Shown one piece after another: positions 1 to 38,232 of a DNA stretch of 38,411 nucleotides. Where the stretch lies: the IMG/VR virus record IMGVR_UViG_3300044476_000029, positions 1 through 38,411 of that record. The stretch is one strand, 5' to 3'. This DNA is from a virus (lineage: Duplodnaviria; Caudoviricetes). The position numbers and the translations under genes were made by a program. The notes beneath the pieces were generated by a model, which saw only the letters and a list, made by a program, of their open reading frames with translations, ran no database searches and was not told the origin of the DNA. The first letter of the stretch is position 1. The number at the start of each line of letters is the position of its first letter.

Positions 1-2
1 TC

Positions 3-2415: not shown

Positions 2416-2416
2416 T

Positions 2417-7099: not shown

Positions 7100-7171
7100 T
7101 GTGTGTGGTCCAGCTACGCTATTTGGGTGCTGATCTAACCGCAGCGTTTGGTAACTATGTTCGTGATGGTT

Positions 7172-7187
7172 ACTAAATACTGGTATG
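7172..7187 (+). promoter_or_regulatory. Putative gp55-type late promoter, leaderless (aCTAAAT-6nt-ATG)
   Basis: CTAAAT 7173-7178, ATG 7185, no SD. Lies in the 3' arm of hairpin 7147-7177. Confidence 0.75.
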
Positions 7188-7550
7188 AACATCAAACTTG
7201 TTAATGCCGAGTATAATGCTGTCTATGGTCTCCTTGCTTCCTTTGAGGGTCCTGCTGGTGCTGTCGTTACAGCATCTAAGCTGATCGATCAGATGCGTAG
7301 TAAGGTTGACGAAGGTAAGGCAGAGTCCATTGAGCTTGAGGTAGAGCCGTATCAGCTTGAGAGCGTGCTGGAAGGTGTGAAGGCTGTAGTGACTGCTGGC
7401 AAGATTAAGGCCACAGACATTGATGCGCTGACTAGCATCTGCGGGCTGATTAAGCTCCGTAAGGCGTTTGGTTCGTTCCTCGATGCCTTCGTTGCACCCA
7501 AGGAGTCTACCATTGAGATCGACGCATCAGTTGATCTGGATGTAGACTAA
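7185..7550 (+). CDS. Hypothetical protein (possible tail-fibre assembly factor)
   Basis: 121-aa acidic ORF right after the fibre gene with its own CTAAAT site. Function inferred from position only. Confidence 0.55.
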   Translation: MNIKLVNAEYNAVYGLLASFEGPAGAVVTASKLIDQMRSKVDEGKAESIELEVEPYQLESVLEGVKAVVTAGKIKATDIDALTSICGLIKLRKAFGSFLDAFVAPKESTIEIDASVDLDVD

Positions 7551-7574: not shown

Positions 7575-7590
7575 ACTAAATGTATGTATG
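7575..7590 (+). promoter_or_regulatory. Putative late promoter of the lysis cassette (aCTAAAT-6nt-ATG)
   Basis: CTAAAT 7576-7581, ATG 7588. Confidence 0.75.
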
Positions 7591-8566: not shown

Positions 8567-9008
8567 AGAGCTAGCTGTCGGAGCGGCAATGGCACTTGCT
8601 GTTATAGGTGCCCTAGGAACTACAAAGGAATGCTCTAATCCGGTAGCGTCTCGCATCGACACGGTCATCATACACCGCAACGATACCATTAGAGTGGTAG
8701 ACTCGGTACTGGATGTCCGTATAAAAAGGATCAAGGTAGCCCCAGATACGGTCGTTATCGCTACCTTCGACACCTTGTTCCAGGATACAGGTCATACAGA
8801 TTCCGTGAAAACGACTGTCTACGCTGAGCGCAGGTGCCTGGAAGTAGTGGATAGCCTAGCTGCTTGCCAGAGTAAGCTCGCAGTCGATGACAGGGCGTTC
8901 CATCAAATTGATACTGTAGTAGTTAGAGAAACTGCACCACTCAAGCAAAGGTTGCTTGATGCAGGTACAGGTATACTCATCGGACTAGGATTAAGGAGTC
9001 TATACTAA
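8559..9008 (+). CDS. Putative spanin/outer-membrane lysis protein
   Basis: N-terminal hydrophobic segment followed by a Cys, repeated DTV motifs, C-terminal hydrophobic GILIGLGL. Follows the endolysin. Confidence 0.5.
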   Translation: MLKELAVGAAMALAVIGALGTTKECSNPVASRIDTVIIHRNDTIRVVDSVLDVRIKRIKVAPDTVVIATFDTLFQDTGHTDSVKTTVYAERRCLEVVDSLAACQSKLAVDDRAFHQIDTVVVRETAPLKQRLLDAGTGILIGLGLRSLY

Positions 9009-10327: not shown

Positions 10328-10790
10328 ACTCGTCACTGCCCTCACTGGGGTTATAGTTGAGTCCGTTAGCTGCACATGACCAGTACATGAGCGTATTAGT
10401 CGGAGGTGTGAAGCCTAGTGCCTCGCACCTCCGTAGCATTGTACGCAGGAACCAGTGAGACTGACCGCAACCAAGAGTGTACGAGATGCTGTATAGGATA
10501 CGTGTGATGCGCAACAGGTTGTGGTTGTAGGCATTCGCCCAGTGGTCGGTCGCGAGGAAGTAGTTGACCATACGCGCCAGCCCACGCATGACTGTATCCA
10601 CTGCCGCACTGTCTGCTTTGATTGCATCGACATTGTCATGCGTCAAGAGCGGAGCATCTGGGTTGACTGGCGAGGGGACGAAGAGCGGGAAGGCGACCTG
10701 TACCCAAGTATGATTGCGCTCCAGCCAGTTGTTGTCCGCCTGCTGGATTGCATCAAGCATATCTATCGTGCGCTGGATTGCATTGTACAT
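10314..10790 (-). CDS. Opioid growth factor receptor (OGFr_N)-like protein
   Basis: LERNHTWVQVAFPL..PSPVNPDAPLLT...NHNLLRITRILYSI...YW matches the OGFr conserved region. GGAG SD upstream. Confidence 0.8.
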   Translation of the reverse strand: MYNAIQRTIDMLDAIQQADNNWLERNHTWVQVAFPLFVPSPVNPDAPLLTHDNVDAIKADSAAVDTVMRGLARMVNYFLATDHWANAYNHNLLRITRILYSISYTLGCGQSHWFLRTMLRRCEALGFTPPTNTLMYWSCAANGLNYNPSEGSDEFTLS

Positions 10791-10819
10791 TGTCGTCTCC
10801 CGTGTGCAGATTGCTTATG

Positions 10820-11446
10820 TTATACGTTAACTGGGTGAGATAAGTTGATGAGACTGCCCGCTTCCGTCCGCACTGTGCCATCAGCATTGTACATATGGGT
10901 GTGGGTGTACTGCGCTTGGTACGATGCTTCGCTCTTTAGTCCAGCAACCATATCACGCAAGGCTACCATCTCTTCCGACAGCTTGATGACAAGCTCCGTT
11001 GCTTCCCTGTTGATCTCATCATAGGTAGCCACGATCTTGTTCAGTCTGTCGATCTCGGCCTGCTGTGCATTAGCGTACATCTGTAGCTTGTCAAGCAACT
11101 CCGATAGCTCTGCTGTCGTCCATACCCGCACAGTTGCTGTTGCTGGGTCATGTAGGTCACGTTGTGCCTGCTGTGCTGTCCTTATCTGATCTGGAGCCCC
11201 AAACAAGCTGTTAGCCATGTTACTGTATGGACCCGTAATCATCGCTTGGGTAGCTCTTGCTTGTGCCTCAGCTAGGCTACGCTCATTCTGCCTTGCCGCA
11301 CGGAATCTCTCGTATTCCGCCATCCGCTCCTCGGCAGTCTCCATGCCCTGCCGTGGGTACATCTGCTCTAGCTCTGACCGAGTTACGACTGGCCGATATG
11401 GCATCATGGACGATAGCCTGTCCCATAGGCTATCAGAACTAGGCAT
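10820..11446 (-). CDS. Hypothetical coiled-coil protein
   Basis: 208 aa, helical, E/Q/R/A-rich. Start overlaps the upstream stop. Confidence 0.6.
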   Translation of the reverse strand: MPSSDSLWDRLSSMMPYRPVVTRSELEQMYPRQGMETAEERMAEYERFRAARQNERSLAEAQARATQAMITGPYSNMANSLFGAPDQIRTAQQAQRDLHDPATATVRVWTTAELSELLDKLQMYANAQQAEIDRLNKIVATYDEINREATELVIKLSEEMVALRDMVAGLKSEASYQAQYTHTHMYNADGTVRTEAGSLINLSHPVNV

Positions 11447-11768
11447 TAGTTACCGCCATGCTGTGAGTAGGCTCTGCCCACAACTGAGCACTGCATCTAC
11501 GAGCGTGCTCCAAGTCACTCTCACCTTCGCGGATGTCCCACTTGTCCCAATCATCTTGGGTCATCTCAGACCTGATGCGGGCGATGGTGTCATCCACTGT
11601 ACCGTACATCTCCTCGTAGCGGATGGGTGCGTTGTCATCCAGCTCGCGCTCGATGCAGTTGGCAATGGTCTGGATCAAAGGGAGTGCATTGGGGTTGCTC
11701 ATATTGGGCTCCAAAATGGAAAAGCCACTTGGATGATCCCACTCCGCTGGTACTAGAGTAGGGTCCAA
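11439..11768 (-). CDS. Hypothetical acidic protein
   Basis: TTG start after GAGG (an internal ATG is an alternative). Chained with 10820-11446. Confidence 0.5.
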   Translation of the reverse strand: MDPTLVPAEWDHPSGFSILEPNMSNPNALPLIQTIANCIERELDDNAPIRYEEMYGTVDDTIARIRSEMTQDDWDKWDIREGESDLEHARRCSAQLWAEPTHSMAVTNA

Positions 11769-11869: not shown

Positions 11870-11986
11870 TTAATTCACGTTAGAGGCAAGAAGTAGCATG
11901 AGCATGAGCTGGCGTTGCTCCTCATCTCTGCGTTCTCTGTCTAGTCTCTGTCTCTCTTCCTCTTCGCGGCGCTGTTTATCAGTCAT
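11870..11986 (-). CDS. Small charged hypothetical protein (38 aa)
   Basis: ATG at 11986 overlaps the end of the DUF2829 gene. Product MTDKQRREEEERQRLDRERRDEEQRQLMLMLLLASNVN. Confidence 0.45.
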   Translation of the reverse strand: MTDKQRREEEERQRLDRERRDEEQRQLMLMLLLASNVN

Positions 11987-12233
11987 TGATGATGATCCAG
12001 TCGTCTGCCTGTAGGTCAGACACGGACGGTACCCATGTGTTGAGCTGACCATGACTGAAGATCACGAAGAATGGCATGAAGGTACCTACACAGGGATTGA
12101 TCTCCCGCACCCTGAACTCTTTGTCAGAGTACAGGTCGATCCTGCGTACCCACATTCCTTTGCCATTCCAGCCGACCCTTTGAATCTTAGCTCCGTCCTG
12201 TACCGCAAGCAGTGCATCAGAAAAGTTAGCCAT
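11979..12233 (-). CDS. tad2: DUF2829 / Tad2-family anti-defence sponge protein
   Basis: NFSDAL..VQDGAKIQRVGWNGKGMWV...PFF...WVPSVSDLQADDW is the DUF2829 signature. Confidence 0.85.
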   Translation of the reverse strand: MANFSDALLAVQDGAKIQRVGWNGKGMWVRRIDLYSDKEFRVREINPCVGTFMPFFVIFSHGQLNTWVPSVSDLQADDWIIIND

Positions 12234-16868: not shown

Positions 16869-17432
16869 ATGATGCCCACAGATCCAAAGCCCAAGAAGAC
16901 ACCGAAGCCACCCACCAAAGAGGCAAAGCCTCGGAAGCTCAAAGAGCTGACACTTGCTGCTAGTGACACCGAGCTACCTGCCAGTGGTTCTTGCCGTGAC
17001 ATGAGCCCAGAGGAGGCCATCGCTGATGGCTACTGGGGTTGCATATACCAGATCACCTTGGCACTACCGTCCAAGATCGGTATCCCTCTGTACTATACGG
17101 GGAGCAAGGGCTTCGGGCCACAGACCAAGACCAAGTCCGGTGAACTAACTGCTGCGGCTACTACATGGATGACCTACACTAGCTCGTCAGACGATGTCAA
17201 TGCTAAGCTAGCTACCGGACTCTACACGGTCCAGTGGAGCATCTTAGGCTACGGGAGGAGCAAGGGGCAGTGCTTGGCCATTGAAGCGGCTCTGATAGCC
17301 CACAGCGTCAAGCAGTACGGGACAGGCCGAGTGCTGAACAAAGCTCAGGTTGGTGGGGGGAAGCTCACAGGCTACCGGAGTAAGTACAGCAAAAGGAAAT
17401 CTGCACCGAAGAGCAACATTCGCTTCAGTTGA
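16869..17432 (+). CDS. GIY-YIG superfamily nuclease (Seg-like, divergent)
   Basis: GCIYQIT...YYTGSK...WMTYTSSS...WSIL...SKGQCLAIEA...LN. AGGAG SD; the ATG at 16872 may be the real start. Confidence 0.65.
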   Translation: MMPTDPKPKKTPKPPTKEAKPRKLKELTLAASDTELPASGSCRDMSPEEAIADGYWGCIYQITLALPSKIGIPLYYTGSKGFGPQTKTKSGELTAAATTWMTYTSSSDDVNAKLATGLYTVQWSILGYGRSKGQCLAIEAALIAHSVKQYGTGRVLNKAQVGGGKLTGYRSKYSKRKSAPKSNIRFS

Positions 17433-17433
17433 C

Positions 17434-17462
17434 TTTACATTCAGCCCCTGCTCGCCTATACT
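17434..17462 (+). promoter_or_regulatory. Sigma70-type promoter
   Basis: TTTACA (17434-17439), 17 nt, TATACT (17457-17462). Confidence 0.65.
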
Positions 17463-17488
17463 TCCATACACAAGCACAGGAGTCAACA

Positions 17489-18049
17489 ATGGCGCGTTGG
17501 GTAGTAGGAAAAGGCATCAATGACATAGTCAATGGTTCGCTCGATCATAAGGTAGCTTACTCTGTCTGGAAGAATATGCTGATCCGATGCTACGATCACA
17601 AGTACCAGCGCATGAGGCCATCGTACATTGGTTGTAGCGTAACCCTGGAGTGGTTGACATTCTCAGTGTTTCTGGTCTGGTTTAAGGCTAACCACAAGGA
17701 TGGTTTTCAGCTTGACAAGGATTGCTTGATACCAGGAAATAAGCTGTATAGTCCAGATACGTGCGTCTTCGTACCTCCCCGAGTCAACTCGATCCTAACA
17801 GATCGCGCTGGCGCTAGAGGACCCTACCCGTTAGGTGTAAACTGGAACACAGCCGTCCTGAAGTTCGTGGCAAAGGTTACTGCGGGTGATGTTCGCCAGC
17901 ACTTAGGGTGCTTTGACACAGCAGAAGAGGCCCATGCAGCCTATCGAGTTGCTAAGAGGGCTGAAGTGAAGCGCGTAGCCATCGAAGCCTTCCTTAACAA
18001 TGAGATCAAGTCTGATGTCTATCTAGCCCTAGTTCGTAGGGAGTTCTAA
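17489..18049 (+). CDS. HNH-type homing endonuclease with AP2-like DNA-binding domain
   Basis: YSVWKNMLIRCY...CSVTLEWLTFSVF...LDKD...GNKLYSPDTCVFVP..VN, then GV.W...HLGCFDTAEEAHAAY. ATG 17489 follows AGGAG. Confidence 0.8.
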   Translation: MARWVVGKGINDIVNGSLDHKVAYSVWKNMLIRCYDHKYQRMRPSYIGCSVTLEWLTFSVFLVWFKANHKDGFQLDKDCLIPGNKLYSPDTCVFVPPRVNSILTDRAGARGPYPLGVNWNTAVLKFVAKVTAGDVRQHLGCFDTAEEAHAAYRVAKRAEVKRVAIEAFLNNEIKSDVYLALVRREF

Positions 18050-18693: not shown

Positions 18694-18722
18694 TTGACAA
18701 ACATCAACGGATAGGTTATATT
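18694..18722 (+). promoter_or_regulatory. Sigma70-type promoter overlapped by an inverted repeat
   Basis: TTGACA (18694-18699), 17 nt, TATATT (18717-18722). Inverted repeat CATCAACG/CGTTGATG spans 18702-18740. Confidence 0.65.
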
Positions 18723-18753: not shown

Positions 18754-18795
18754 AGCCCGTAGTGTGGAGAGCCCATGCTACGGGTTCTCTGTTTT
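18754..18795 (+). terminator. Probable intrinsic terminator/attenuator
   Basis: Stem AGCCCGTAGTGTGG/CCATGCTACGGGTT followed by CTCTGTTTT. Confidence 0.55.
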
Positions 18796-19324: not shown

Positions 19325-19492
19325 ATGAGTAATAGATACGCAGAGCATGACGATAATATGCGTCAGCTAAGCAAGCAGGAGCAGACCAAGTTGATGTGGG
19401 ATTACCACTCTGACGCTGGCTTGCAGTTGATCTACCCCACCTTTGCACTGTTTGTCGAGGCACGCACAGGTGTCCGGATTGGTGGTATCTAA
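19325..19492 (+). CDS. Hypothetical protein (55 aa)
   Basis: ATG 19325 follows AAGGAG. TAATG overlap with the next gene. Confidence 0.55.
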   Translation: MSNRYAEHDDNMRQLSKQEQTKLMWDYHSDAGLQLIYPTFALFVEARTGVRIGGI

Positions 19493-19878
19493 TGCAGCAG
19501 TCTGAAGGAGGAGAGCAGACCGTTACATTGATGGATGTGCTCAACAGCATTAAGCTGGACACATTCGAGGGATGTGCTGGTACGATTGATGGGATCACAT
19601 ATGACATCTCCAAGACAGCATCTAGTGTATGGCTGTCTATTCCGATGCAAGGTACATGGCAGGAGATGGTACACAATAATATCAAGCGCATGGAGTCTCT
19701 GATGGTCCGTGATGGCTTTGATGCTGCTGATGTCAATGTCTCTGTGCCGTATGCTGGAGTAGGGTATTCGCTAGTCGTCAAGATCAGCAAGTACAAGGCA
19801 CCCGAGCAGCCTGCAATCGAGTACGCTGAAACAGATAATCAACCAACACTTTCCTCTACTCGTAAGCGCAGGGGGTAA
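19492..19878 (+). CDS. Hypothetical protein (128 aa)
   Basis: Coupled ORF immediately upstream of the sigma factor. Confidence 0.6.
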   Translation: MQQSEGGEQTVTLMDVLNSIKLDTFEGCAGTIDGITYDISKTASSVWLSIPMQGTWQEMVHNNIKRMESLMVRDGFDAADVNVSVPYAGVGYSLVVKISKYKAPEQPAIEYAETDNQPTLSSTRKRRG

Positions 19879-19881: not shown

Positions 19882-20346
19882 ATGGGCGTCAACAGGCGAG
19901 ATATTGATTTCGATAAGGCTAGTCTGTGTGACGCCTCTAACTTCTTCTTCGACCCCGTCCGTGGTACGGATCTGATGGAGCAGTTTGTATTGACAGGTGT
20001 ACCTTGTGATGAGCTATTAGAGATGGTCCAAAAGCTATATGTCAAGCTGACACGGCATCCGGATTACAAGGGATATACGGACGAGATCAAAGAGGATATG
20101 ATATCCACTGCTTATTATGAGTTCCTCAAGTATGGCCATAACTTCAAGGCCAATAAGGCGAGGAATGGCGCATATACATTTCTCCAATGGAACGCCCGTA
20201 ACTCATTTAATAGGGAGCTTAAAAAGCACTACCGTAATCGAAACCTCAAGGAAGCACTAGCTGAGCCGGAGGTAATAGAGGAATGGCACAGGCTGTACGC
20301 AGACAATCTGCTTGCTGACCGTGATGAGGTTCTGTCTGATAGCTAA
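19882..20346 (+). CDS. T4 gp55-like late sigma factor
   Basis: LTRHPDYKGYTDEIKEDMISTAYYEFLKYGHNFKANKARNGAYTFLQWNARNSFNRELKK aligns by eye with the gp55 sigma2 core as I recall it (LSKRFNFSGYT..WKQEMI.DG......LHNFD..K.KN..AYIT....NAF..RIKKE). Last gene before the late region. Confidence 0.85.
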   Translation: MGVNRRDIDFDKASLCDASNFFFDPVRGTDLMEQFVLTGVPCDELLEMVQKLYVKLTRHPDYKGYTDEIKEDMISTAYYEFLKYGHNFKANKARNGAYTFLQWNARNSFNRELKKHYRNRNLKEALAEPEVIEEWHRLYADNLLADRDEVLSDS

Positions 20347-20371
20347 TTTTAGATAGCGAGGTCACTTGCTA

Positions 20372-20388
20372 TCTAAATGCTATACATG
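20372..20388 (+). promoter_or_regulatory. Putative late promoter (tCTAAAT-7nt-ATG)
   Basis: CTAAAT 20373-20378, ATG 20386. Lies in the 3' arm of hairpin 20348-20377. Confidence 0.75.
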
Positions 20389-20613
20389 GAAAAGAAGACT
20401 AGACTCGGATATCTGGCTGGGTTGCAGAGGGACCTAGCCATCGCAAAGGCAGAGCATCTGCATCCCGCTATTATTGATGAGCTTGAGTCTCGCATCGAGG
20501 CACACAAGCAGTACAAGCGCGACTACCACAAGCGCACATACAAGAGTCGTTGCTGTGACGTACCGCAGGCTGAGACTCTTGCTATCGTCAATGCCGCTGC
20601 TGGGATCATCTAA
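20386..20613 (+). CDS. Hypothetical protein (75 aa), first gene of the packaging operon
   Basis: Start moved to ATG 20386 by promoter spacing. TAATG-coupled to TerS. Confidence 0.6.
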   Translation: MEKKTRLGYLAGLQRDLAIAKAEHLHPAIIDELESRIEAHKQYKRDYHKRTYKSRCCDVPQAETLAIVNAAAGII

Positions 20614-21236
20614 TGCAGATGGTAGACCAGTCTAAGGCTGCGGATACGCTGGCCGAACTACGCGCAAGTATGGAGCAAGCAACTGCTGTGCGTAGGCAAC
20701 AGGCAAACCTTGCCGCATTGAGTCCTATTGGAGTGGCACCTACCACGCCAGCTCCTATCGCTCCCGTGAAGAAGAGCAGGCATCGCAAGGTAGCTAAGGT
20801 AGCACAGGACCTTGTCAAGGATGCTGGTATTGCAGACAAGGCACCTACCGATGTAGCTGTTAAGGGCAAGAGTTCCCGCCCACGTAAGCCACAGACACCG
20901 GAAGAGCTGGCGGCTAAGGCGGAGGCGAAGAAGGATGTCCGTAATACAAGAGGCCAGTTTGCTCCTGGTAATACTGCCAACCCACACGGTCGTACAGGAG
21001 CTGCTGGTACAGGTGGTGTATCGATGCGCTACTACTTCGAGCAGTTCTGGAACCGTCTTAACGACCAAGAGCGAGAGAGTATGTGGCAGGCGCTGTTCCA
21101 GAAGGCAGCGTATGGTGACATTGCCGCAAGTAAGCTCCTGCTTCAGTTCAACCGCGAGCTGGATCAGCCTGTCATGCAGGTTGAGGCTGACCAAGGTGTG
21201 CGTATCAGCTTGACCGTACCACAGCGGGATGAGTAA
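20613..21236 (+). CDS. terS: Terminase small subunit
   Basis: RGQFAPGNTANPHGR (DUF5681-like motif) and helical KAAYGDIAASKLLL. TAATG-coupled to TerL. Confidence 0.7.
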   Translation: MQMVDQSKAADTLAELRASMEQATAVRRQQANLAALSPIGVAPTTPAPIAPVKKSRHRKVAKVAQDLVKDAGIADKAPTDVAVKGKSSRPRKPQTPEELAAKAEAKKDVRNTRGQFAPGNTANPHGRTGAAGTGGVSMRYYFEQFWNRLNDQERESMWQALFQKAAYGDIAASKLLLQFNRELDQPVMQVEADQGVRISLTVPQRDE

Positions 21237-22603
21237 TGCCTGATACTTTTGTATTTGAGCCTAACCAGAGCCAGATGCGCCTTCTTGCATCCAATGCCGA
21301 TGTCTGCCTTTACGGTGGTGCGGCTGGCTCGGGCAAGAGCTTGGTCGCTATCGTTGACCTGCTCGGGCTTAATGAGCCGGGACCACGGGCTCGGTATCAG
21401 ATGCCAGAGTATCGTGGACTGATCTATCGTCAGCGTTCCGGTGACTTGGCTGACCTTATTGATAAGAGCAAGCGCATCTACCAGCTCGTAGATCCGGGCG
21501 CTAACTTCAATAACTCCGACAAGACTTGGACATTCAGCTCGGGCGCTAAGATCTATATGCGCTACTTCGAGCGGTTCGAGCAGGCAGAGACGTTCCTCCA
21601 GGGTCAGGAATTGGCTACTATCTATGCAGAGGAGGTAGGCCAGTTCGAGGATGATAGTATCTTCCGTTATGCTATCTCCCGACTGCGCTCGTCCACAGGC
21701 ATCAAGTGCTATATGCGGGCTACCTGTAACCCGTCACGTTATCCTTGGCTGCGGGAGCTATTCCGTATCGATGACATTGGTACTGATACTTGCTTCAATG
21801 TGGATCTCAAGACACCGGATGGACGTATCTTAACCCGTAAGTTCCAGTTTATCCGAGGCCGACTTACAGATAACAAGTACCTCGGTGACGACTACATGGC
21901 TAACTTGCTATTGCAGTCAGAGGCTGACCAAAAGGCACTGCTTGAGGGCAGGTGGGATGCTTATGACTCTGTTGATGGGCAGGTGTACGAGCATGAGCTT
22001 GCACGCATGGTTAAGGAGCACAGGTTAACACGAGTACCATATGACCCTGGCGTGCCTGTACATACTTTCTGGGATATTGGTATGCAGGATCTGACAGTGA
22101 TCCTGTTCGTCCAGTTTGTCGGTAAAGAGGTGCGCGTCATTGATATGCTCAAGGGTAACAATGTGGGTATCGGTGATGGCTTTGTTCCTAAGATATTGCG
22201 CAGGAAGGAAGACCTAGGCTATATCTATGCAGGTCATCACCTACCGCATGACGCATCCCAGCGTGACAAGTTCGGTGGTGTTAGCTTGGTGGATAATGTG
22301 CGCAAGTACCTTAATGATGTGCATATCCTACCCCGAATCGCACTTGATGCGGGCTTACAGCTCACTAAGCAGATGTTCGTTAACGTTTACATTGACCGTG
22401 AGCTAGACCTTTATAGTGACCTAGTAAGGTACAGACGGCAGTGGATCGAGCGTATGGGCATCTATTCGGATGAGCCTGTGCATGACAAGCACTCGCACGC
22501 TGCTGATGCCTTCCGGTACATTGCATACTACAGACCCAAGAGCAAGGTGGATATCAGTGACATGGACTGCGTTGTGGCTAGTAATCCGTTTACTTTTAGA
22601 TAG
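21236..22603 (+). CDS. terL: Terminase large subunit
   Basis: Walker A YGGAAGSGKS, Walker B IYAEE, motif C ATCNP, nuclease motifs WDIG, LPHD and HAADAFRY. Confidence 0.95.
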   Translation: MPDTFVFEPNQSQMRLLASNADVCLYGGAAGSGKSLVAIVDLLGLNEPGPRARYQMPEYRGLIYRQRSGDLADLIDKSKRIYQLVDPGANFNNSDKTWTFSSGAKIYMRYFERFEQAETFLQGQELATIYAEEVGQFEDDSIFRYAISRLRSSTGIKCYMRATCNPSRYPWLRELFRIDDIGTDTCFNVDLKTPDGRILTRKFQFIRGRLTDNKYLGDDYMANLLLQSEADQKALLEGRWDAYDSVDGQVYEHELARMVKEHRLTRVPYDPGVPVHTFWDIGMQDLTVILFVQFVGKEVRVIDMLKGNNVGIGDGFVPKILRRKEDLGYIYAGHHLPHDASQRDKFGGVSLVDNVRKYLNDVHILPRIALDAGLQLTKQMFVNVYIDRELDLYSDLVRYRRQWIERMGIYSDEPVHDKHSHAADAFRYIAYYRPKSKVDISDMDCVVASNPFTFR

Positions 22604-22622
22604 CAAACGTCTTCAGTTGCTT

Positions 22623-22638
22623 TCTAAATCCTTGCATG
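22623..22638 (+). promoter_or_regulatory. Putative late promoter (tCTAAAT-6nt-ATG)
   Basis: CTAAAT 22624-22629, ATG 22636. Lies in the 3' arm of inverted repeat 22595-22628. Confidence 0.75.
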
Positions 22639-23055
22639 AGCAACACAACTATCGTACTAGATAAGCAGACAATGGAACAGCGTGGTATTCGTCTTGGTCA
22701 TCTCATTGAGATCCGTGAGCTTGGCTTCTACGGATTCGACAATGATATCATCAACGATATGGTTAAGTATGAGATCTTCCCACAGGTGTATAAGGTCAAG
22801 AACAAGCTGTATGTCCAGCGTTCTGTGATCTTTGGCATCGTTGAGACGTTCCTGAAGAATGCCATGACACTGTACAAGGCTGTCGAGGAGACCGAGAAGG
22901 TCAAGGCAGAGCTGGCGGAACGCGCTGTCCCTGTGGATGTGCTGACCGAGGTGATGGATGAGGCCAAGGAGCTTGGTATCGAGGATGTCGAGCAGGTGCA
23001 AGAGCTGCTTGACGCTAAGCTGGCCAATACTACCGAACCCGAAGCTACTAACTAA
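22636..23055 (+). CDS. Hypothetical protein, possibly AlpA/Xis-like HTH plus acidic coiled coil
   Basis: IRLGHLIE...IINDMVKYEIFPQVYKVKNKLYVQRSVI loosely resembles the AlpA/excisionase pattern. Confidence 0.45.
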   Translation: MSNTTIVLDKQTMEQRGIRLGHLIEIRELGFYGFDNDIINDMVKYEIFPQVYKVKNKLYVQRSVIFGIVETFLKNAMTLYKAVEETEKVKAELAERAVPVDVLTEVMDEAKELGIEDVEQVQELLDAKLANTTEPEATN

Positions 23056-23066
23056 ATCCTTGCATG
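23051..23066 (+). promoter_or_regulatory. Putative late promoter of the portal gene (aCTAAAT-6nt-ATG)
   Basis: CTAAAT 23052-23057 contains the upstream stop codon. ATG 23064. Confidence 0.75.
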
Positions 23067-25352
23067 ATTGATCTAATGGGCAAGATGGGCAAGGACGATG
23101 ACGCAGATAGCAAGGGCAAGTCCTCAGATAGCGACTTCCTTGAGCTGGTACATACTCGCTATAAGGATACTCAGGCTGTCTGGGAGCCTATCTTTCGGCG
23201 TTTCCGAGAGGACCTTGCTTTCGAGCAAGGTAATCAATGGGACGAGGGACTGAAGAGTCGCCGGACCAAACAGAACCTGTCTTGCCTTGTCATCAATAAG
23301 ATCAGTGCCAAGGTCAAGTACATCGTCAACAATGCACGATCTGCTATGCCTGCGGTTAAGGTCCATGCTATTCGTGATGGTGCTAGTGAGAACACTGCCA
23401 AGGTATTCGATGGTCTGATTAAGTCTATCGAGTACCAGCACAATGCCAAGCAGGCTCGCGTACTTGCCCACAAGTCCAATGTGATCGGTGGTCTTGGTGC
23501 ATGGCGTATCTTGGTATATGCTGATGACGAGGGTAACAAGGAACTCAAGTACGAGCGTGTGCTTGATCCGACTACTATCCTGATGGACCCTGCTGCCAAG
23601 GCACAGGATTTCGCGGATGCTGAGTTTGCCTTTGTCATCAACTGGGTGCCTAATGATGTATTTGAGGACCAGTATCCGGATGTGGATACCAAAAACTATG
23701 CTCCGGAATACAGTGCTTGGTTCTCCAAGGATGCTGTACAGGTTGTCGAGTATTGGGTTCGTGGTGACGATGGTCTATTTGACCAGTATCTGATATGCGG
23801 TGATGAGATCCTCCATGAAGAGACAGAGTATGCAGGTAAGTATCTGCCTATTATGTATCTGACTGGCGAGGAGTATTGCATTGACGATGTCCGTGATTAC
23901 AAGGGTATCGTCCGTGATGTCAAGGATATGCAGATCCTGCATAACCTTAGCAAGAGCCGTACTGCTGATTACATTGCACGTTCTGCACAGGCGGAATGGC
24001 TTGTCGAGGCTGAGCAGGTAAGTGACTATCTGGAGCAATGGAAGAAGGTTAATACTGGAGGATCTGGTCTCCTGCTTTATAACGGGACTTCGTCTGGAGG
24101 CAAGCCACAGCGTATTGATCCGCTTGCACCTCCTACTGGATTGATGGAGGCAAGCAAGGAGACAGACGAAGATATCCGGATGACTATTGGTATCCGCGAT
24201 CCTTTGGCTGATGTGCCATCGAGCCAGTCGGGTAAGGCTATCCAATTGCAGATTAGCCAAGGTAACATTGGTACGTTCGAGTTTGCCGATAAACTGAATG
24301 AGCTGGTTCGGTATGAGGGCAAGGTACTCGTTGATCTGATTCCCAAGGTCTACGATTATCCGCATATCCGTGAGATCATGGGCCTTGATGGCAATGTGAC
24401 CACTGTGCCGCTTAATCAAGAGTACATTGATAATGGCGAGCAGGTGATGCACGATCTTACTCGTGGCAAGTACCTCGTTACGATTAGCTCTGGTGCAAGC
24501 TACGAGAGCCAGAGGTCAGAGACTGCTGATAAGCTGGTTGAGCTGGTTGGTAAGTACCCTGATATGATGGCAGTGGCCGGTGATCTGATCGTCCGTAACA
24601 TGGACTTTGTGGGTGCTGATGAACTGGCGGATCGCTTGAAGGCTGGTATTGCGCCTAACATCTTGGCTGCTAGCAACAGCACCAATGCTGATAAGAGCGA
24701 GCAGGCTGTCATGCAATTGCAGGCTCAGTTGGCACAGGCAGCACAGCAGGCTCAAGAGATGCAGGCGCAGTTTGCACAGCTCCAGCAGGAACATGGTGCT
24801 CTGCAACAGCAAGTGCAGACCAAGCAGGCTGAGATCGGTGCAAAGGCACAGGCTGATACGCAGGTTGCACATGTTAAGGTACAGGCTGAGACACAGACAA
24901 TGCAGACCAAGTACGAGCTTGAGCTACAGCTCCAGCGTGAGAAGGCACAGTTTGAGCGTGAGATGGCGCTGCTCAAGATGCAACATGAGCAGAGGCTCAA
25001 GGAGATGGAGCTTGGTCACGATGCTAGCAAGACCACATTTGTGGCCGATCATCAGGCTCAATTGCAGACTGCACTCAAGCAAGCGGATGGCGAGCAGAAG
25101 CTAGAGCAGATCCAATTCAAGGCTGACGCAGATCAGATGATGCTGGATATCAAGGCTGGTATCGAGGCTGATGCAGATACTGTGGATCACAGGCAGAACC
25201 TGCAAATGCTGGCTCTGAACCATGACCACGAGATCGATAAGCTATCGGTGCAGGCTGATAGCAATGCAATGATGGCACAGCTCAATGCCGCTCTTGCCCC
25301 TAAGCCCGTGGTCGAGAAGAAGCCAAGGGCCAAGAAGCCTAAGCCTGAGTAA
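23064..25352 (+). CDS. Portal protein, P22 gp1-like, with long C-terminal helical barrel
   Basis: F..GNQW...LVINKI...GLGAWRI...DFADAEFAF...GIVRDVKDMQ...SGKAIQ...GKYLVTISSGASYESQRSE, followed by a Q/A-rich coiled-coil tail. Confidence 0.92.
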   Translation: MIDLMGKMGKDDDADSKGKSSDSDFLELVHTRYKDTQAVWEPIFRRFREDLAFEQGNQWDEGLKSRRTKQNLSCLVINKISAKVKYIVNNARSAMPAVKVHAIRDGASENTAKVFDGLIKSIEYQHNAKQARVLAHKSNVIGGLGAWRILVYADDEGNKELKYERVLDPTTILMDPAAKAQDFADAEFAFVINWVPNDVFEDQYPDVDTKNYAPEYSAWFSKDAVQVVEYWVRGDDGLFDQYLICGDEILHEETEYAGKYLPIMYLTGEEYCIDDVRDYKGIVRDVKDMQILHNLSKSRTADYIARSAQAEWLVEAEQVSDYLEQWKKVNTGGSGLLLYNGTSSGGKPQRIDPLAPPTGLMEASKETDEDIRMTIGIRDPLADVPSSQSGKAIQLQISQGNIGTFEFADKLNELVRYEGKVLVDLIPKVYDYPHIREIMGLDGNVTTVPLNQEYIDNGEQVMHDLTRGKYLVTISSGASYESQRSETADKLVELVGKYPDMMAVAGDLIVRNMDFVGADELADRLKAGIAPNILAASNSTNADKSEQAVMQLQAQLAQAAQQAQEMQAQFAQLQQEHGALQQQVQTKQAEIGAKAQADTQVAHVKVQAETQTMQTKYELELQLQREKAQFEREMALLKMQHEQRLKEMELGHDASKTTFVADHQAQLQTALKQADGEQKLEQIQFKADADQMMLDIKAGIEADADTVDHRQNLQMLALNHDHEIDKLSVQADSNAMMAQLNAALAPKPVVEKKPRAKKPKPE

Positions 25353-25387
25353 TCATGTAGCGTTATTTTAGACTGAGTGTTATTGGT

Positions 25388-25421
25388 GGCCGCTAGTATG
25401 AAAGTATTAGCGGCCTTTCTT
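25388..25421 (+). terminator. Intrinsic terminator after the portal gene
   Basis: GGCCGCTAGTAT-GAAA-GTATTAGCGGCC followed by TTTCTT. Confidence 0.8.
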
Positions 25422-25455
25422 ATGTCTATAATTGGATAGCACGGTTTACATGGTT

Positions 25456-25472
25456 ACTAAATGTGTTATATG
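25456..25472 (+). promoter_or_regulatory. Putative late promoter of the scaffold gene (aCTAAAT-7nt-ATG)
   Basis: CTAAAT 25457-25462, ATG 25470. ATGGTTACTAAAT is identical to 7166-7178. Confidence 0.75.
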
Positions 25473-26381
25473 AGCACAGAAAACACTGCACCCGAAGTCG
25501 TTGAAGCACCTAATACTGCACCTGCTGATACCAGCTCGCAGGTTGAGCAGGAGACACCAGATACTCCTGTAGTTGAGACACCGGAGAAGTTTAAGCCTTG
25601 GGAGATCAAGGAGGAAGAGGAATCCGCTCCTGCTGACAATAAGCGGAAGCCTGCAATCCCTTATGATCGGTTCCGGGAGGTTAATGAGGAGAAGAAAGCG
25701 TACCAAGCACAGCTCGCAGAGTACGAAAAGGAGCTTGCCACGTACCGTAGTCGGCAGGAACAGTTGGCCCAGATCAAGACTCCGGCTGACATCAAGATCG
25801 AGGACTATGACGATGTTGAGAAGTATCTAGCTGACCGTGATGAGGCTATCAAGGCTGCGACTGTGGCTGATATTGAGAGTCGATTCCAGCAGCGCGAGAT
25901 CGCTAGGCTGGAGCAACAGCAGAACGAGGCTATCATTGACCGCTTTGGCAAGAATGTCGAGGAAGCTGTCAAGTACAACCCTGACATTGCACAGGCTGTT
26001 GGCTTCTTGGATCAGCACGCAGATAAGCTCCATCCAGCAGTCGCTCGTGAGCTGTTGGTCGATGAGAATGCGGCTGAGGTTATCCATGACATCGTCACTA
26101 ATCAGGAGTTGCTGACCAAGCTGTTCCGCGGTACTCCAGACGATGCTGTGCGAATGATTAACCGTCTGAGTGCCAAGATTGATGTGGCTGCTCGTAGGCA
26201 GACTGCCTCCAGTGCTGGCGGTAATGATGTGCCTGTCCCTGCTGCACTGACCACGACTGCTAAGGTTGCACCGAAGGGTATCCCTGTCACTGTCAAGGGT
26301 GGCGGCAAGGCAACGACCAAGGACATCGCCAAGATGAACAAGGAAGAGTACCGCGCCTTCAAGCAGAATGGCTATAAGTAA
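25470..26381 (+). CDS. Capsid scaffolding protein
   Basis: Acidic P/T-rich N-terminus, IPYDRFREVNEEKK coiled coil, C-terminal MNKEEYRAF. Lies between portal and coat. Confidence 0.8.
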   Translation: MSTENTAPEVVEAPNTAPADTSSQVEQETPDTPVVETPEKFKPWEIKEEEESAPADNKRKPAIPYDRFREVNEEKKAYQAQLAEYEKELATYRSRQEQLAQIKTPADIKIEDYDDVEKYLADRDEAIKAATVADIESRFQQREIARLEQQQNEAIIDRFGKNVEEAVKYNPDIAQAVGFLDQHADKLHPAVARELLVDENAAEVIHDIVTNQELLTKLFRGTPDDAVRMINRLSAKIDVAARRQTASSAGGNDVPVPAALTTTAKVAPKGIPVTVKGGGKATTKDIAKMNKEEYRAFKQNGYK

Positions 26382-26414
26382 GCAATAGTAGCCATTGGTG
26401 CGTTATTGTGGCGT

Positions 26415-26431
26415 ACTAAATGTTGTGCATA
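26415..26431 (+). promoter_or_regulatory. Putative late promoter of the coat gene (aCTAAAT-7nt-ATA, leadered)
   Basis: CTAAAT 26416-26421; predicted +1 is A26429 in a GC-A context. Confidence 0.7.
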
Positions 26432-26597
26432 AGCTAGTCATCTTGTAAAACTGACTATCCAATTCGTCCTCTCCGTCTGCTCGACTGACTGGATGTACTG
26501 AGAGCCCGAGGTTACTTGGAGATGGGTAATCAAGGTAAACACAATACATCCAGCTTGAGATCACAATGCTCATACAGAGCAGAAAGAGAGATATAGA
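26429..26597 (+). ncRNA. Structured 5' leader of the coat mRNA (candidate cis-regulatory RNA)
   Basis: Stems TAGTCA/TGACTA, CTGGATGTA/TACATCCAG (26489-26497/26545-26553), TCTGCTC/GAGCAGA and CTCTC/GAGAG, the last two covering the RBS region. Confidence 0.55.
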
Positions 26598-27887
26598 ATG
26601 TCCGTTACGATCAACTCCCTTATCATCAGCAAGGAATCGCTGGATATCTGGGAAAACAACCTCGTCCTCGCCAAGTACATCGACTGGTCCTACAGTGACA
26701 AGTTCGAGCAGAGGATCGGTGCGACCTACAGCATCCGTCGTCCTGTGATGGTGACTGTCACCAAGAATAACCTTGCTTGGAATGCTGCTAACTCGGCAGT
26801 GACTGAGACCAAGGTTGCACTGGTGATCGACTCCACTGTGACTGCTCCGATCTCGTTCAATGACGCCGACATGGCTCTGCGTGTTGACCAGTTCTCCGAT
26901 CGCTACATCAAGCCCTCCATCGCTACTCTGGCTGCCACGCTGGACGCAAGCATTGCTGACGCAGTGATTAACTCCGCTACTGGTACTGCTGGGCTTCAGG
27001 GATCGTCTGATCCGGGTACCGTTGGACCGAACTCTGCTGGTTACATGGTTACCTATACAGCAGCTACGGATTCGACCTATGTGACTGCTATCACTCAGGC
27101 CCGTAAGGTGCTGATGGATCAGGCTTGCCCGGATGATGGTCAGATCTTCGGTGTTCTGTCCACCTCGTACAATGCTGGACTGGTTCGTGCGCAGGCTGCG
27201 CTGTTCAACCCCCTCATGGAGGTTGGTGCTAAGTATCGCAAGGGTCTCATCGGAACCTACGATGGTATCATCTTCTCATACTCCCAGTCGCTCGTTGCTC
27301 ACACTAACGGTACTGTCAATACGATTGCTATCACTGCTGGTGAGCTGACTTCCGGCTGGGCTGAGACTTCCTCGGTCACTGTGACTGCCACGGCTGGCAT
27401 CAATAAGGGTGACGTTTACGAGGTCACGGGTGCTTACATCGTCAATCCGCTGACGAAGGTTGTGACAGATACTCCGTTCCAGGTGCAGGTCACTTCGATC
27501 ACCAACGGCACGACTCTCGTGGTCTCGCCTGCGATCATCACGGGTGGGCAGTATCAGAACGTGTCTGCGACTGTGGTTGGTAAGGCGACTACTCTCAAGG
27601 GCGGCACTGGTACCACTGCTGTTGAGTCGCTAGTGTTCCACAAGTCTGCGATCTGTGCAGCTTCGATCGAGATGGTCACGCCGAAGAAGTCCTCTGAGGA
27701 CATGGTCGAGACGATCAAGGATACCGAGGCTGATGGCTTCCAGTTCCGCTTCCTGCGCTCGTATGACACCTTCGGTACTACTGGTACCTTCGGTGCAGGT
27801 GTTCCGGGTATGCTGAGCAGGTTTGATGGTATGTACGGCCTAAAAACTGTACTCCCTGCCTGGATTTGCAGAGTCCGTCCTGTCTAA
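26598..27887 (+). CDS. Major capsid protein, P22 gp5-like
   Basis: ENNLVLAK...IGATYSIRRP...FSDRYIKPSIATLA...LVFHKSAI...RFDGMYG..V.P.W..R. 429 aa, follows the scaffold. Confidence 0.92.
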   Translation: MSVTINSLIISKESLDIWENNLVLAKYIDWSYSDKFEQRIGATYSIRRPVMVTVTKNNLAWNAANSAVTETKVALVIDSTVTAPISFNDADMALRVDQFSDRYIKPSIATLAATLDASIADAVINSATGTAGLQGSSDPGTVGPNSAGYMVTYTAATDSTYVTAITQARKVLMDQACPDDGQIFGVLSTSYNAGLVRAQAALFNPLMEVGAKYRKGLIGTYDGIIFSYSQSLVAHTNGTVNTIAITAGELTSGWAETSSVTVTATAGINKGDVYEVTGAYIVNPLTKVVTDTPFQVQVTSITNGTTLVVSPAIITGGQYQNVSATVVGKATTLKGGTGTTAVESLVFHKSAICAASIEMVTPKKSSEDMVETIKDTEADGFQFRFLRSYDTFGTTGTFGAGVPGMLSRFDGMYGLKTVLPAWICRVRPV

Positions 27888-27914
27888 TCAGCTACTTGCT
27901 GGATTGGTCAACTG

Positions 27915-27947
27915 GCCCTGCATCTTCGGATGTGGGGCTTTTTGTTT
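27915..27947 (+). terminator. Intrinsic terminator after the coat gene
   Basis: GCCCTGCATC-TTCG-GATGTGGGGC with a C(UUCG)G loop, followed by TTTTTGTTT. Confidence 0.88.
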
Positions 27948-27952
27948 GTCTA

Positions 27953-27968
27953 TCTAAATCATGGCATG
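27953..27968 (+). promoter_or_regulatory. Putative late promoter (tCTAAAT-6nt-ATG)
   Basis: CTAAAT 27954-27959, ATG 27966, directly after the terminator. Confidence 0.78.
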
Positions 27969-28697
27969 ATTAGCTCACTGACTGCCTATGACATCATCCA
28001 CAAAGCTCTCCGTGTAACTGGTGTCGTTGGACTAGGTGATGCGGTTGATCCACTCGTTTCGCAGGAAGCACTAATGCTCCTTAATGGACTGCGAGCGGAA
28101 TGGTCGCTTAACGTCAAGAACTACAAGAAGTACGAGCAGACATACACTGCTACCGGAAACAAGCAGTTCATCACGTTGGGCACAGATGGTATCACTCCGG
28201 GTGATATTCCTGTACGTCCGAACGATATCACCAACATTACCATCATCAATGGTGCTCCGAACGCAGCGAACAACAACTGGGCATTGCCGATCTTTCCGTA
28301 TGCGGACTATCGCAATATCACGGTCCAGAATATCTATGCTGTTCCGCAGGCTGCTTACATTGACAACGAGTATCCGTTGCAGAATATCTACCTGTACCCT
28401 GGCATGAGTTCTGGCTGGTCTATTCGTGTGATCGGCTCCTCGTACATGACGGACTACGAGAACATCGGTGATCCGTTCATTGATCCACCGGAGTATTTCA
28501 CTGCCTTGTACCTCGGGCTGGCATTGAAGCTGGCACCCTTGTATGGCAGTCAGCTCAGCGAAGGTGTTGTTCAGCAGGCGCACTCCGCTATCAAGCACAT
28601 CAAGCACCATATGCTGATTACTCGGCTTGGCGTACTGCCGAACAACCTCAATGGCCACTCTGGTGCTATTAACTTCATGTCCGGCATGGTTGTATAA
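27966..28697 (+). CDS. Head-tail adaptor, P22 gp4-like
   Basis: TAYDIIHKALRVTGV...ALMLLNGL...PPEYFTALYLGLALKLAPLYG. Start moved to ATG 27966. Confidence 0.75.
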   Translation: MISSLTAYDIIHKALRVTGVVGLGDAVDPLVSQEALMLLNGLRAEWSLNVKNYKKYEQTYTATGNKQFITLGTDGITPGDIPVRPNDITNITIINGAPNAANNNWALPIFPYADYRNITVQNIYAVPQAAYIDNEYPLQNIYLYPGMSSGWSIRVIGSSYMTDYENIGDPFIDPPEYFTALYLGLALKLAPLYGSQLSEGVVQQAHSAIKHIKHHMLITRLGVLPNNLNGHSGAINFMSGMVV

Positions 28698-30259
28698 TGC
28701 CAAGCAAGACTACAGTCCTTAACCTAGGCAGTAAGCCGTATGCTTCTCCCTATTACTCCATTGGCCGAGAGATCTGCCATAATATGTACTTAGAGTTCGC
28801 GCAGTCTGAGGATGCCAAGGCCAAGTATTACCTGCTCAAGATCCCCGGACTCAAGCGGTATGGTGCTGTCGATGAGACCAATCTAGGTGCTTGCCGTGGT
28901 ATGTTGACCACAGGTAATGGTCGTACCTTCACTGTGTTTGGATCACAGCTATGGGAGATCCTTGAAGGCGGAACTCGTGTGTTCCTTGGTTCTCTGTCCT
29001 CATACTCCGGTCCTGTCAGCATGGCCGAGAATGGATATCAGCTAATTGTTGTTGATGGTACTGCTGGCTGGATCTTGAACATGGTAGATAACAACTGGAC
29101 GCAGATCACAGACGAATACTTCCCCGGCAATGCGCAGGCTACTCAAGCACCTACCCATGTAGCGTACATTGATACCTACTTCATCGTCAATGTGCCTGGA
29201 ACGACTGATTACTACTACTCCGAGAGCTACTATATGTATCACGATGATGTCAATGATACATCTCGTGATTACGATCCAGCAGTGCAGAACGGATATTGGA
29301 ATCCGATCAACAGCGGTAAGAAGATCGGTCGTCCGGACAATATCACAGCACTGGCTAATTGCAATAACTATCTATGGCTATTCGGTGCCAATAGCAACGA
29401 AGTGCATTACGATACGGGCGATTACAATAACCAGCTATTCGCTAGGTATGAAGGTGCTATCCTTAACTTCGGTTGCAATGCACCTTACTCTGTGGCTACT
29501 TATGCCAACAACATCTTCTGGTTGGGTTCGGATGTGTCAGGTACTCTTGGCGTGTTTACCAATGAGGGCATGGCACCAAAGCGCATTAGCACTCGCGGTA
29601 TCGAGCAGATCATCCAAGACTTCACCAAGTTCACCGACTGCATCTCCTATACCTACGCACAGGCAGGCCATGCTTTCTATGTGATGCAGTTTCCTTACGA
29701 GAGCAGGACTTTCGTATACGACCTTGTGACTGATAGCTGGCACGAGCGCACATTCTTGGACAAGAATACAGGTGAGCTGTATGCGTGGCATGGTATGTTT
29801 GCAACCCAGAACTTCAACACGCTGATTATGGGCGATGTGGCACATAGCGGTACGTTTGAGCTGGATACGGGCTACTACCAGAACGATGACATGGACAGCG
29901 AGACAGGAGTCAACTACATCCGTTGTGCTAAGAACACGCCTATCCTGTTCGTAAACGGCAACAACGTGCGCTATGACTGGGTACAGATCATCTGCAACCA
30001 AGGTTACGGCACGGCAGTTAATACGGCAGAAGGAGTTGGTCAGAGCCCTAAAGTGCTATTGGCCATGTCGGATGATACAGGTATCACATACCGTAATGAG
30101 CGTGAGGCTCCTCTAGGTAGGATCGGTGAGTACAGCAATCGTAGCCGTGTCCTTGGCTGTGGCATGGGTAGAAACCGTGTGTTCCGCATTACCATGACTG
30201 ACCCTGTGCCGTTTATCTTGGTCGAGCTGCTCATCAACGCACAAGAAATGACTTGGTAA
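28697..30259 (+). CDS. Tail hub / DNA-stabilisation protein, P22 gp10-like
   Basis: GPVSMAENG.QLIVVDG, GCNAPYSV, RISTRGIE, YAQAGHAFYV, YDLVTDSWHER, SDDTG.TY, GMGRNRVFRITMTDPV. Confidence 0.88.
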   Translation: MPSKTTVLNLGSKPYASPYYSIGREICHNMYLEFAQSEDAKAKYYLLKIPGLKRYGAVDETNLGACRGMLTTGNGRTFTVFGSQLWEILEGGTRVFLGSLSSYSGPVSMAENGYQLIVVDGTAGWILNMVDNNWTQITDEYFPGNAQATQAPTHVAYIDTYFIVNVPGTTDYYYSESYYMYHDDVNDTSRDYDPAVQNGYWNPINSGKKIGRPDNITALANCNNYLWLFGANSNEVHYDTGDYNNQLFARYEGAILNFGCNAPYSVATYANNIFWLGSDVSGTLGVFTNEGMAPKRISTRGIEQIIQDFTKFTDCISYTYAQAGHAFYVMQFPYESRTFVYDLVTDSWHERTFLDKNTGELYAWHGMFATQNFNTLIMGDVAHSGTFELDTGYYQNDDMDSETGVNYIRCAKNTPILFVNGNNVRYDWVQIICNQGYGTAVNTAEGVGQSPKVLLAMSDDTGITYRNEREAPLGRIGEYSNRSRVLGCGMGRNRVFRITMTDPVPFILVELLINAQEMTW

Positions 30260-30675
30260 TGAGCAAGCAACTGTTCCCAATTCCGGTTACCACTCCGATC
30301 ATGCAGAACGCAGGCGGCAACCAGTTCAGCATCACGTGGCAGAAGTACCTCAAGGCTGTTGGCGATGACCTATTGACAGCGAACTTGGTCAAGGATGTCA
30401 CTGAGCTGGTACAAGATCCTAACTTCCCCTCTGATCCAACCAAGAAGATCAGCGTTCCGACTGGGCTAAAGTACACGATCAACGCCAATATCTGTGCCTG
30501 TACGTTCGACAAGACGCTGACAGCGGACAAGGAGATCATCCTTCCGTATGTCAGCTTACTTGCGTTCAAGGTGGACAGCGTGCTGTATCCAGCAGGTACT
30601 AAGCGGATCACGGTGCCTGCGAGTACAGCGTTCGTGCAGTTCTGGTACATCGTTGACTTTAACTCTCCGATCTAA
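30259..30675 (+). CDS. Small tail structural protein
   Basis: ATG 30259 by TAATG coupling (MSKQLFPIP...ITWQKYL). Lies between hub and ejection genes. Confidence 0.55.
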   Translation: MSKQLFPIPVTTPIMQNAGGNQFSITWQKYLKAVGDDLLTANLVKDVTELVQDPNFPSDPTKKISVPTGLKYTINANICACTFDKTLTADKEIILPYVSLLAFKVDSVLYPAGTKRITVPASTAFVQFWYIVDFNSPI

Positions 30676-30687
30676 ATATCGTATATG
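30671..30687 (+). promoter_or_regulatory. Putative late promoter of the ejection operon (tCTAAAT-7nt-ATG)
   Basis: CTAAAT 30672-30677 includes the upstream stop codon. ATG 30685. Confidence 0.72.
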
Positions 30688-30705
30688 AAAAAGGTAGGTA
30701 ACTAA
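30685..30705 (+). CDS. Leaderless 6-codon minigene (MKKVGN)
   Basis: ATG AAA AAG GTA GGT AAC TAA; its stop overlaps the ATG at 30705 (TAATG). Confidence 0.5.
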   Translation: MKKVGN

Positions 30706-35761: not shown

Positions 35762-35796
35762 GTCTTAACAATACAGCAATTTTGTGAGGATGTCAA
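35759..35796 (-). promoter_or_regulatory. Sigma70-type promoter giving a leaderless mRNA
   Basis: TTGACA (35796-35791), 17 nt, TATTGT (35773-35768), 6 nt, ATG (35761). Confidence 0.72.
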
Positions 35797-35820: not shown

Positions 35821-35837
35821 TCTAAATCATCAGCATG
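35821..35837 (+). promoter_or_regulatory. Putative late promoter (tCTAAAT-7nt-ATG)
   Basis: CTAAAT 35822-35827, ATG 35835. Confidence 0.75.
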
Positions 35838-38215: not shown

Positions 38216-38232
38216 TCTAAATCCACCACATG
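38216..38232 (+). promoter_or_regulatory. Putative late promoter (tCTAAAT-7nt-ATG)
   Basis: CTAAAT 38217-38222, ATG 38230. Confidence 0.75.

Follow-up and report, generated by a model that had tools for sequence, protein, structure and literature searches.

In large T4-related phages, gp55 is one part of a replication-coupled transcription machine, while in P22 and lambda late control is exerted by Q antitermination. The T4 late system combines gp55 with gp33, gp45, and gp44/62 at promoters of the type TATAAATA, and its structure has been solved (7D7C/7D7D). According to the parts of the T4 literature drawn on here, gp55 on its own initiates accurately at a basal level (PMC2988020, PMC7892883), this basal late transcription is slow and needs supercoiling, and nine T4 late sites have A for T at position -13 (PMC2988020). 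Late promoters of the Aeromonas phage Aeh1, which is T4-related and keeps genes 45 and 55 in its core, have a/gC at -13/-12 (PMC2988020, section 9). At the T4 genes e and I-TevI, an RNA structure in read-through transcripts silences the late genes early in infection (PMC3014915). A gp55 without gp33 is already known: Sinorhizobium phage phiM9 and Rhizobium phage P10VF lack a gp33 homologue, and the relevant part of PMC4621102 proposes basal-only activity for them. Both are T4-superfamily phages that have the T4 core genes and, besides gp55, an RpoE-like sigma (PMC4621102). Phage Mu, a small phage on the host replisome, has late promoters without a -35 element that are served by C, a sigma70-dependent activator with clamp motifs, as described in the portion of PMC12867686 used here. 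Among 50,697 phage records, 149 had gp55 matches at E≤1, and the 40 matches listed come from genomes of 149 to 249 kb. The literature searched, which leaves most subscription journals outside, yielded no account of a small podovirus with gp55.

Here we describe such a gene in the IMG/VR record IMGVR_UViG_3300044476_000029, analyzed over its 38,411 nucleotides (the window). Portal (E 3.7e-122) and coat (E 4.7e-19) are P22-like, which bears out the P22-like podovirus assignment made in a first-pass annotation from the letters alone, and P22-type portal, coat, scaffold, Ad3/Hc3 neck, and ejection proteins are all present, which makes the phage a P22-like podovirus by gene content. Because a single 8146-base contig (depth 13.1) from run X1, possibly the source sample, bridges both window ends, the genome forms a circle of 38,962 bases (about 39 kb), 551 of them unseen; contig positions 7859-8146 equal window 38124-38411 and positions 1-7307 equal window 1-7307, the two matches being taken as one and the same record. 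The genome is essentially complete. A CheckV value of 53% completeness, for a record listed as linear, was overruled by the bridging contig and by the relative G001 (33.8 kb, 95% complete). The ORF starting at 38230 keeps its frame through the 551-base gap to a stop at 995, and the single tail protein of one relative resembles both ends (62% at the N-terminus, E 3e-4 at the other end), from which we infer one tail gene running from 38230 across the gap into window 1-995.

When ca. 50 ORFs were scanned against Pfam and PHROGs, the only replication genes matched were primase/helicase-like and SSB-like; there was no match to a DNA polymerase (the T4 gp43 query was partial), an integrase, or a repressor. 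Two GTDB genome scans for the host found no relative. After the lysis genes there is a protein with an ART-PolyVal ADP-ribosyltransferase domain (9008-10327, +, E 6.7e-11), in what seems to be a variable region, as a variant in run X1 appears to skip 9012-11465. Other genes code for an OGFr_N domain protein (10314-10790, -, E 1.4e-9), a Tad2-like anti-Thoeris domain (11979-12233, -, E 9.6e-20), and three homing-endonuclease-like proteins, two GIY-YIG and one HNH (992-1651, 16869-17432, and 17429-18049, all +).

The sigma gene (Table 1) has the motifs quoted in the first-pass annotation, a C-terminus reading DEVLSDS and a position ahead of the packaging genes, just as described there; it is followed by a 75-aa ORF, terS, and terL. 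Its product matched PHROG 234 (late sigma transcription factor; phrog_234) with E 7.5e-10 and had no match in Pfam. The sole PDB match at E≤10 was 7d7c_F, gp55 (E 0.041), and T4 gp55 was recovered from the PDB at E 9.7e-5 with a profile built from the 15 closest sequences. In the reverse direction, a T4 gp55 query found the same ORF in the six-frame set of the window (E 1.8e-4). Among 1.84 billion representative sequences, 48 proteins matched the window protein at E≤0.001. The AlphaFold model (pLDDT 87.8) had gp55 as top match with Foldseek (E 0.011, TM 0.60) and 7d7c_F with VIA-align (Z 13.4, rmsd 4.0, 115 residues aligned; runner-up Z 10.2), followed by other sigma2 domains. Residues 22-141 of the model superpose on gp55 10-134, with a sigma2 fold, the long H4 and the next helix, and no sigma3/4, and the best named viral matches of the model are sigma-like or late sigma factors. 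The gp55-like identity first proposed from motifs is thus matched by both profile and fold, and the ORF is, by homology and predicted structure, a sigma2-only factor of the T4 gp55 family. Pfam Sigma70_r2 misses this protein and therefore provides no test for the absence of a sigma gene in relatives. A scan of viral contigs with this single protein found nothing.

Table 1. Positions of the sigma gene, nearby elements, and late boxes in the window
Feature	Position	Strand	Remarks
Late box	7172..7178	+	6 nt to ATG 7185; within 13-bp hairpin 7146-7178, G-U pairs
Late box	7575..7581	+	6 nt to ATG 7588, lysis cluster gene 1
Sigma70-type promoter TTGACA-17-TATATT, 11/12	18694..18722	+	Consensus match only
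128-aa ORF, candidate sigma partner	19492..19878	+	Directly upstream of sigma gene; predicted alpha/beta fold
Predicted gp55-family sigma2-only late factor, 154 aa	19882..20346	+	Strong Shine-Dalgarno; no clamp motif
Hairpin, 3' arm = late box	20348..20377	+	Kept behind gp55 in window, L010, and L011
Late box TCTAAAT	20372..20378	+	7 nt to ATG 20386 (75-aa ORF, then terS, terL)
P22-like packaging and head/neck module	20613..30259	+	terS, terL, portal, scaffold, coat, adaptor Ad3, head closure Hc3
Late box	22623..22629	+	6 nt to ATG 22636; within hairpin 22595-22628
Late box	23051..23057	+	6 nt to portal ATG 23064; without hairpin
Late box	25456..25462	+	7 nt to scaffold ATG 25470
Late box, coat gene	26415..26421	+	Only one with leader; about 170 nt to ATG 26598
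Late box	27953..27959	+	6 nt to adaptor ATG 27966; just past intrinsic terminator 27914-27939
Late box	30671..30677	+	Precedes 6-codon mini-ORF 30685-30705
Late box	35821..35827	+	7 nt to tail-protein ATG 35835; within 7-bp inverted repeat
Late box	38216..38222	+	7 nt to ATG 38230 of putative gap-spanning tail gene

To compare the protein with T4 gp55 at its contact with RNA polymerase, a complex was modeled with the beta' clamp helices of E. coli as a stand-in host. The score was 0.65 versus 0.02 for the best control; the mark set for this score is reached by 116 of 157 solved pairs versus 2 of 215 mismatched pairs. Modeled contacts involve residues 68-83, and across runs at least 67% of contacts agree, with a partner pLDDT of at least 73. 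Structure prediction with the clamp helices, a check suggested at the outset, thus gave a predicted fit, which is to be read as likeness and not as binding because a similar complex, 7D7C, is already solved. Among the T4 residues described as tested in the part of PMC7892883 used, L54, E70 (as D72), F86, and Y97 (as F) are kept; E70 is the only one conserved in the acidic trio E70/D74/E77, and N13, R57, H95, T99, and R114 are replaced by P25, H59, Y98, Q102, and Y117. A motif scan of the protein found neither an SLDFL-type nor a QL[SD]LF-type clamp motif, in agreement with the earlier statement that none was obvious.

The hexamer CTAAAT, put forward in the first-pass annotation as the late promoter, is not enriched as such (14 found versus 13.8 expected), and TATAAATA occurs at or below chance. 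What is enriched is CTAAAT placed six or seven bases before an ATG, with 11 cases on both strands versus a mean of 0.57 and a maximum of 4 in 500 shuffles, so the promoter claim holds for the box in this context and not for the bare hexamer. Ten of these cases are on the + strand, and the single one on the - strand heads no long ORF. As many as 13 of the 14 copies of the hexamer are on the + strand; ten stand 6 or 7 bases ahead of a gene's ATG, and one more precedes the leader of the coat gene, which has a box at a similar place in L010 and L002 too. These 11 WCTAAAT boxes head only virion, packaging, and lysis units, with none before replication or other leftward genes. Position -13, which was outside the search pattern, is A or T in all 19 sites from four lineages and G or C in the three CTAAAT sites that head no gene. 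No -35 consensus emerges over the 19 sites, and a -10-only promoter spanning -13 to -6, of the variant WCTAAWT and with a start site deduced from this geometry, fits the pattern. A sigma70 hexamer TANNNT in register was found at 0 of the 10 box-led starts, which speaks against firing by host sigma alone, the outcome that had been named as refuting the proposal.

With the C of the box at -12 in T4 numbering, +1 would therefore fall on the A of the ATG or one base before. The median anti-Shine-Dalgarno energy was +1.2 kcal/mol for the 10 box-led genes versus -6.1 kcal/mol for 31 other genes (p 1.6e-5). Because of the box-to-ATG geometry and the lack of Shine-Dalgarno pairing, we infer that the late mRNAs are mostly leaderless. 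Two small leftward ORFs in the late region (35355-35796, -) lie behind a sigma70-type promoter, TTGACA-17-TATTGT, that ends 6 nt before an ATG without Shine-Dalgarno, and they probably form a leaderless early cassette. The six-codon ORF at 30685-30705 (+) contains the Shine-Dalgarno for the ejection gene that follows, whose ATG (30705) overlaps the stop of the small ORF, an arrangement that suggests translational coupling. The terminase genes are flanked by two ORFs without annotation (+): 20386-20613, seen only in the gp55 clade (L010, L011), and 22636-23055, present also in gp55-negative relatives.

The CTAAWT box recurs in three related lineages, in two of which the sigma gene is in view. 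L010 (35% GC) has the sigma gene at the same place and CTAATT followed by 6 or 7 bases and ATG before five homologous genes, together with the coat site, while in L011 (63% GC) the sigma gene and the box are both found, together with the same following genes. Boxes also occur in L143 and in L002, which nearly duplicates the window, but neither sequence extends as far as the sigma position. Among 38 related records, the box pattern was found in six and gp55 in two, which are the two with most boxes. The window record had 12 matches to the pattern, including one intragenic CTAATT; the other clade members had 5, 2, and 1, and two distant genomes of 55 kb had 2 and 1. The median anti-Shine-Dalgarno energy was +1.5 for 11 starts of the clade versus -6.6 for 37 homologous starts outside it (12 loci; near-duplicate loci, ejection-gene starts, and doubtful start picks were left out), and none of these 37 had a box; the close relatives that supplied them had no pattern match anywhere. 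The box bearers form one clade in the adaptor tree (support 94/99) and in a quick head-closure (Hc) tree (94), both with all other rows labeled as Shine-Dalgarno by default, and for this reason the correlation of box and sigma counts as one evolutionary event. Most gp55-negative records are fragments, and only G001 (95%), G019, and G026 (87%) are both close and near complete. In L012 (G001) and other gp55-negative relatives neither gp55 nor Q was found, with 0 of 4 matching the Q models; they share with the window head genes at 40 to 62% identity and a terminase at only about 30%.

The T4 partners of gp55 were searched for in the record. The Pfam model of gp33 had no match (T4 control E 6.3e-28), in a poorly conserved family of which a very divergent copy could escape, and gp45 had none with one Pfam model (T4 control E 4.2e-53) or with a second one run without T4 control. 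In a six-frame search of the window, T4 gp45, gp44, gp62, and part of gp43 gave nothing better than E 0.2, and no clamp or clamp loader was matched among the ca. 50 scanned ORFs. The 551 unread bases cannot hide gp45 because they are too short for 228 aa. Two Q models found no antiterminator in the record, with E. coli prophage controls positive. With these controls and an essentially complete genome, the earlier impression of no recognizable gp45, gp33, or Q stands, and its suggestion of clamp independence holds as regards a phage-encoded clamp, although the host beta clamp or another phage cofactor could still take part. As judged from gene content, a system without phage clamp or gp33 is not the T4 clamp-activated system.

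The locus thus shares with T4 the sigma2-only family and fold and the -10-only geometry without -35, but it lacks gp45, gp33, loader, polymerase, and C-terminal clamp motif, sits in a 39-kb P22-like genome and not one of 169 kb, uses the box WCTAAWT, and has late genes mostly without Shine-Dalgarno. The replacement of A by C at -12 is found in Aeh1 too; unlike Aeh1, the window clade has A/T at -13, A or T at -8 depending on the lineage, and a free -6. The lack of gp33 is common to phiM9 and P10VF, which differ from the window in their T4 gene set and additional sigma. With P22 and lambda it has in common the P22-type portal, coat, and neck and a regulator gene immediately ahead of the late genes, but there is no Q match, and eleven separate late boxes take the place of one antiterminated operon. 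It resembles Mu in phage size, reliance on the host replisome, and late promoters without -35, whereas the window protein would be a sigma without clamp motif and not, as described for C, an activator with one (PMC12867686).

Some of the boxes overlap hairpins. CTAA pairs with an upstream arm above shuffles at 4 of 11 window sites (nominal p<0.05), two more are near p 0.1, and 5 of 11 show no hairpin (p>0.5); elsewhere the figures are 2/5 in L010, 1/1 in L011, 0/2 in L002, and 0/1 in L143. The 10-bp stem behind the sigma gene is paired in 29 of 30 cells over three lineages, with two double changes and two G-U-type changes, versus 27 to 40% when slid out of register, but its covariation, tested over three sequences, falls short of significance, with 107 of 500 shuffles matching these values. 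Box-overlapping hairpins of the window have no U tract and are absent from the terminator hits, and so they were rejected as canonical terminators. A cruciform is disfavored where G-T pairs stabilize the + strand (RNA energies of -13.3 versus -4.3 at 7173 and -11.7 versus -3.6 in L011). A hairpin-plus-box scan of ca. 20 of 64 parts of the viral contigs gave at least 120 loci, none matching a window protein, and L044, L051, L079, and L095, with a sigma-like match nearby, were judged chance matches in unrelated AT-rich phages. The likeness to T4 e and I-TevI lies in a late promoter inside a structure formed only by longer early transcripts. In the T4 cases, as far as PMC3014915 was consulted, the hairpin hides the Shine-Dalgarno or AUG, while the window starts concerned lack a Shine-Dalgarno, and about 7 nt separate the end of the stem from the ATG. 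By analogy, the hairpins may silence late genes in early read-through RNA, a role we propose with low confidence.

We consider it probable that a gp55-family factor, with host RNA polymerase and no phage clamp or gp33, fires the eleven boxes and that the late mRNAs are mostly leaderless. A late programme run by the sigma alone is likely because no helpers were found and because virion genes lie right behind a matching box without ribosome-binding site. Since T4 basal transcription is slow and supercoiling dependent, a helper is nonetheless to be expected, and the sigma might read the boxes together with another phage protein that does not resemble gp33, the product of the ORF at 19492 being the best candidate. 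In each of the three lineages that show the sigma gene, this ORF stands before it (the L010 version at 21% identity, the L011 version with a profile probability of 92.9), and a structurally different cofactor has been raised for phiM9 in the section of PMC4621102 concerned. Its model (pLDDT 72.6), however, has no clear fold match (best Z 6.0), no viral match was found at E≤0.001, and the adjacency may stem from one shared acquisition, so we regard a required partner of this kind as rather unlikely. As a gp33 homologue the ORF was rejected, given its alpha/beta fold versus the all-helical gp33, and the Atlas had no usable match.

Activation through the host beta clamp seems less likely again. 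With no DNA polymerase among its scanned ORFs, the phage would have to rely on the host replisome, late gene expression by Mu C draws on the host clamp according to the part of PMC12867686 consulted, and three close homologues (P0006, P0052, and L011) end in Qx[ST]FL; yet Qx[SDE][LM]F and LDF[LYF] are missing from the gp55-like protein P0001, from ORF 19492, and from its homologues, Qx[SDE][LM]F occurs in only 1 of 54 gp55-family proteins, at an internal position, and the C-termini of the family are not conserved. That host sigma reads the boxes, or that boxes and hairpins serve as signals for RNA processing or translation with the gp55-like gene incidental, is very unlikely. The strand bias of some box hairpins would suit RNA signals, but the restriction to late genes, the T4/Aeh1 geometry, the missing TANNNT, the lack of boxes in gp55-negative relatives, and the boxes without hairpin all speak against it.

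Under transcription by the gp55-family factor with host polymerase, host sigma70 would first act at the promoter match in Table 1 to transcribe the operon whose last gene is gp55. A long hairpin with a U-rich tail at 18754-18792 (+), about 30 nt past this promoter, covers the Shine-Dalgarno and ATG of ORF 18775 and could be an attenuator that delays gp55. The gp55 protein would then bind the beta' clamp helices and read WCTAAWT, a variant of TATAAATA of the Aeh1 type, as -13 to -7, with the "basal" activity that T4 gp55 shows alone and with transcription starting on the ATG or one base before. Late timing would come from gp55 accumulation and not from coupling to replication. As the least certain step, box-overlapping hairpins in read-through RNA may prevent the premature synthesis of packaging proteins from early transcripts. 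The full picture of a captured T4-type sigma, with no clamp or coactivator, its own -10-only promoter for each late unit, leaderless starts replacing Shine-Dalgarno, and hairpins partly setting the timing, is plausible, with somewhat less than an even chance of being right in all its parts.

What is new here is the confinement of WCTAAAT boxes to virion, packaging, and lysis units, with leaderless-type starts. With gp55 as its only recognizable part of the T4 late machinery, this natural 39-kb genome lends itself to asking whether a complete late programme can be driven by basal gp55 transcription, and what takes the place of clamp coupling. Close relatives that translate the same virion genes from Shine-Dalgarno starts offer a matched comparison for the rewiring of regulon and translation after the gain of one sigma. 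The 154-aa sigma and its 7-base promoter are also a compact candidate for orthogonal expression.
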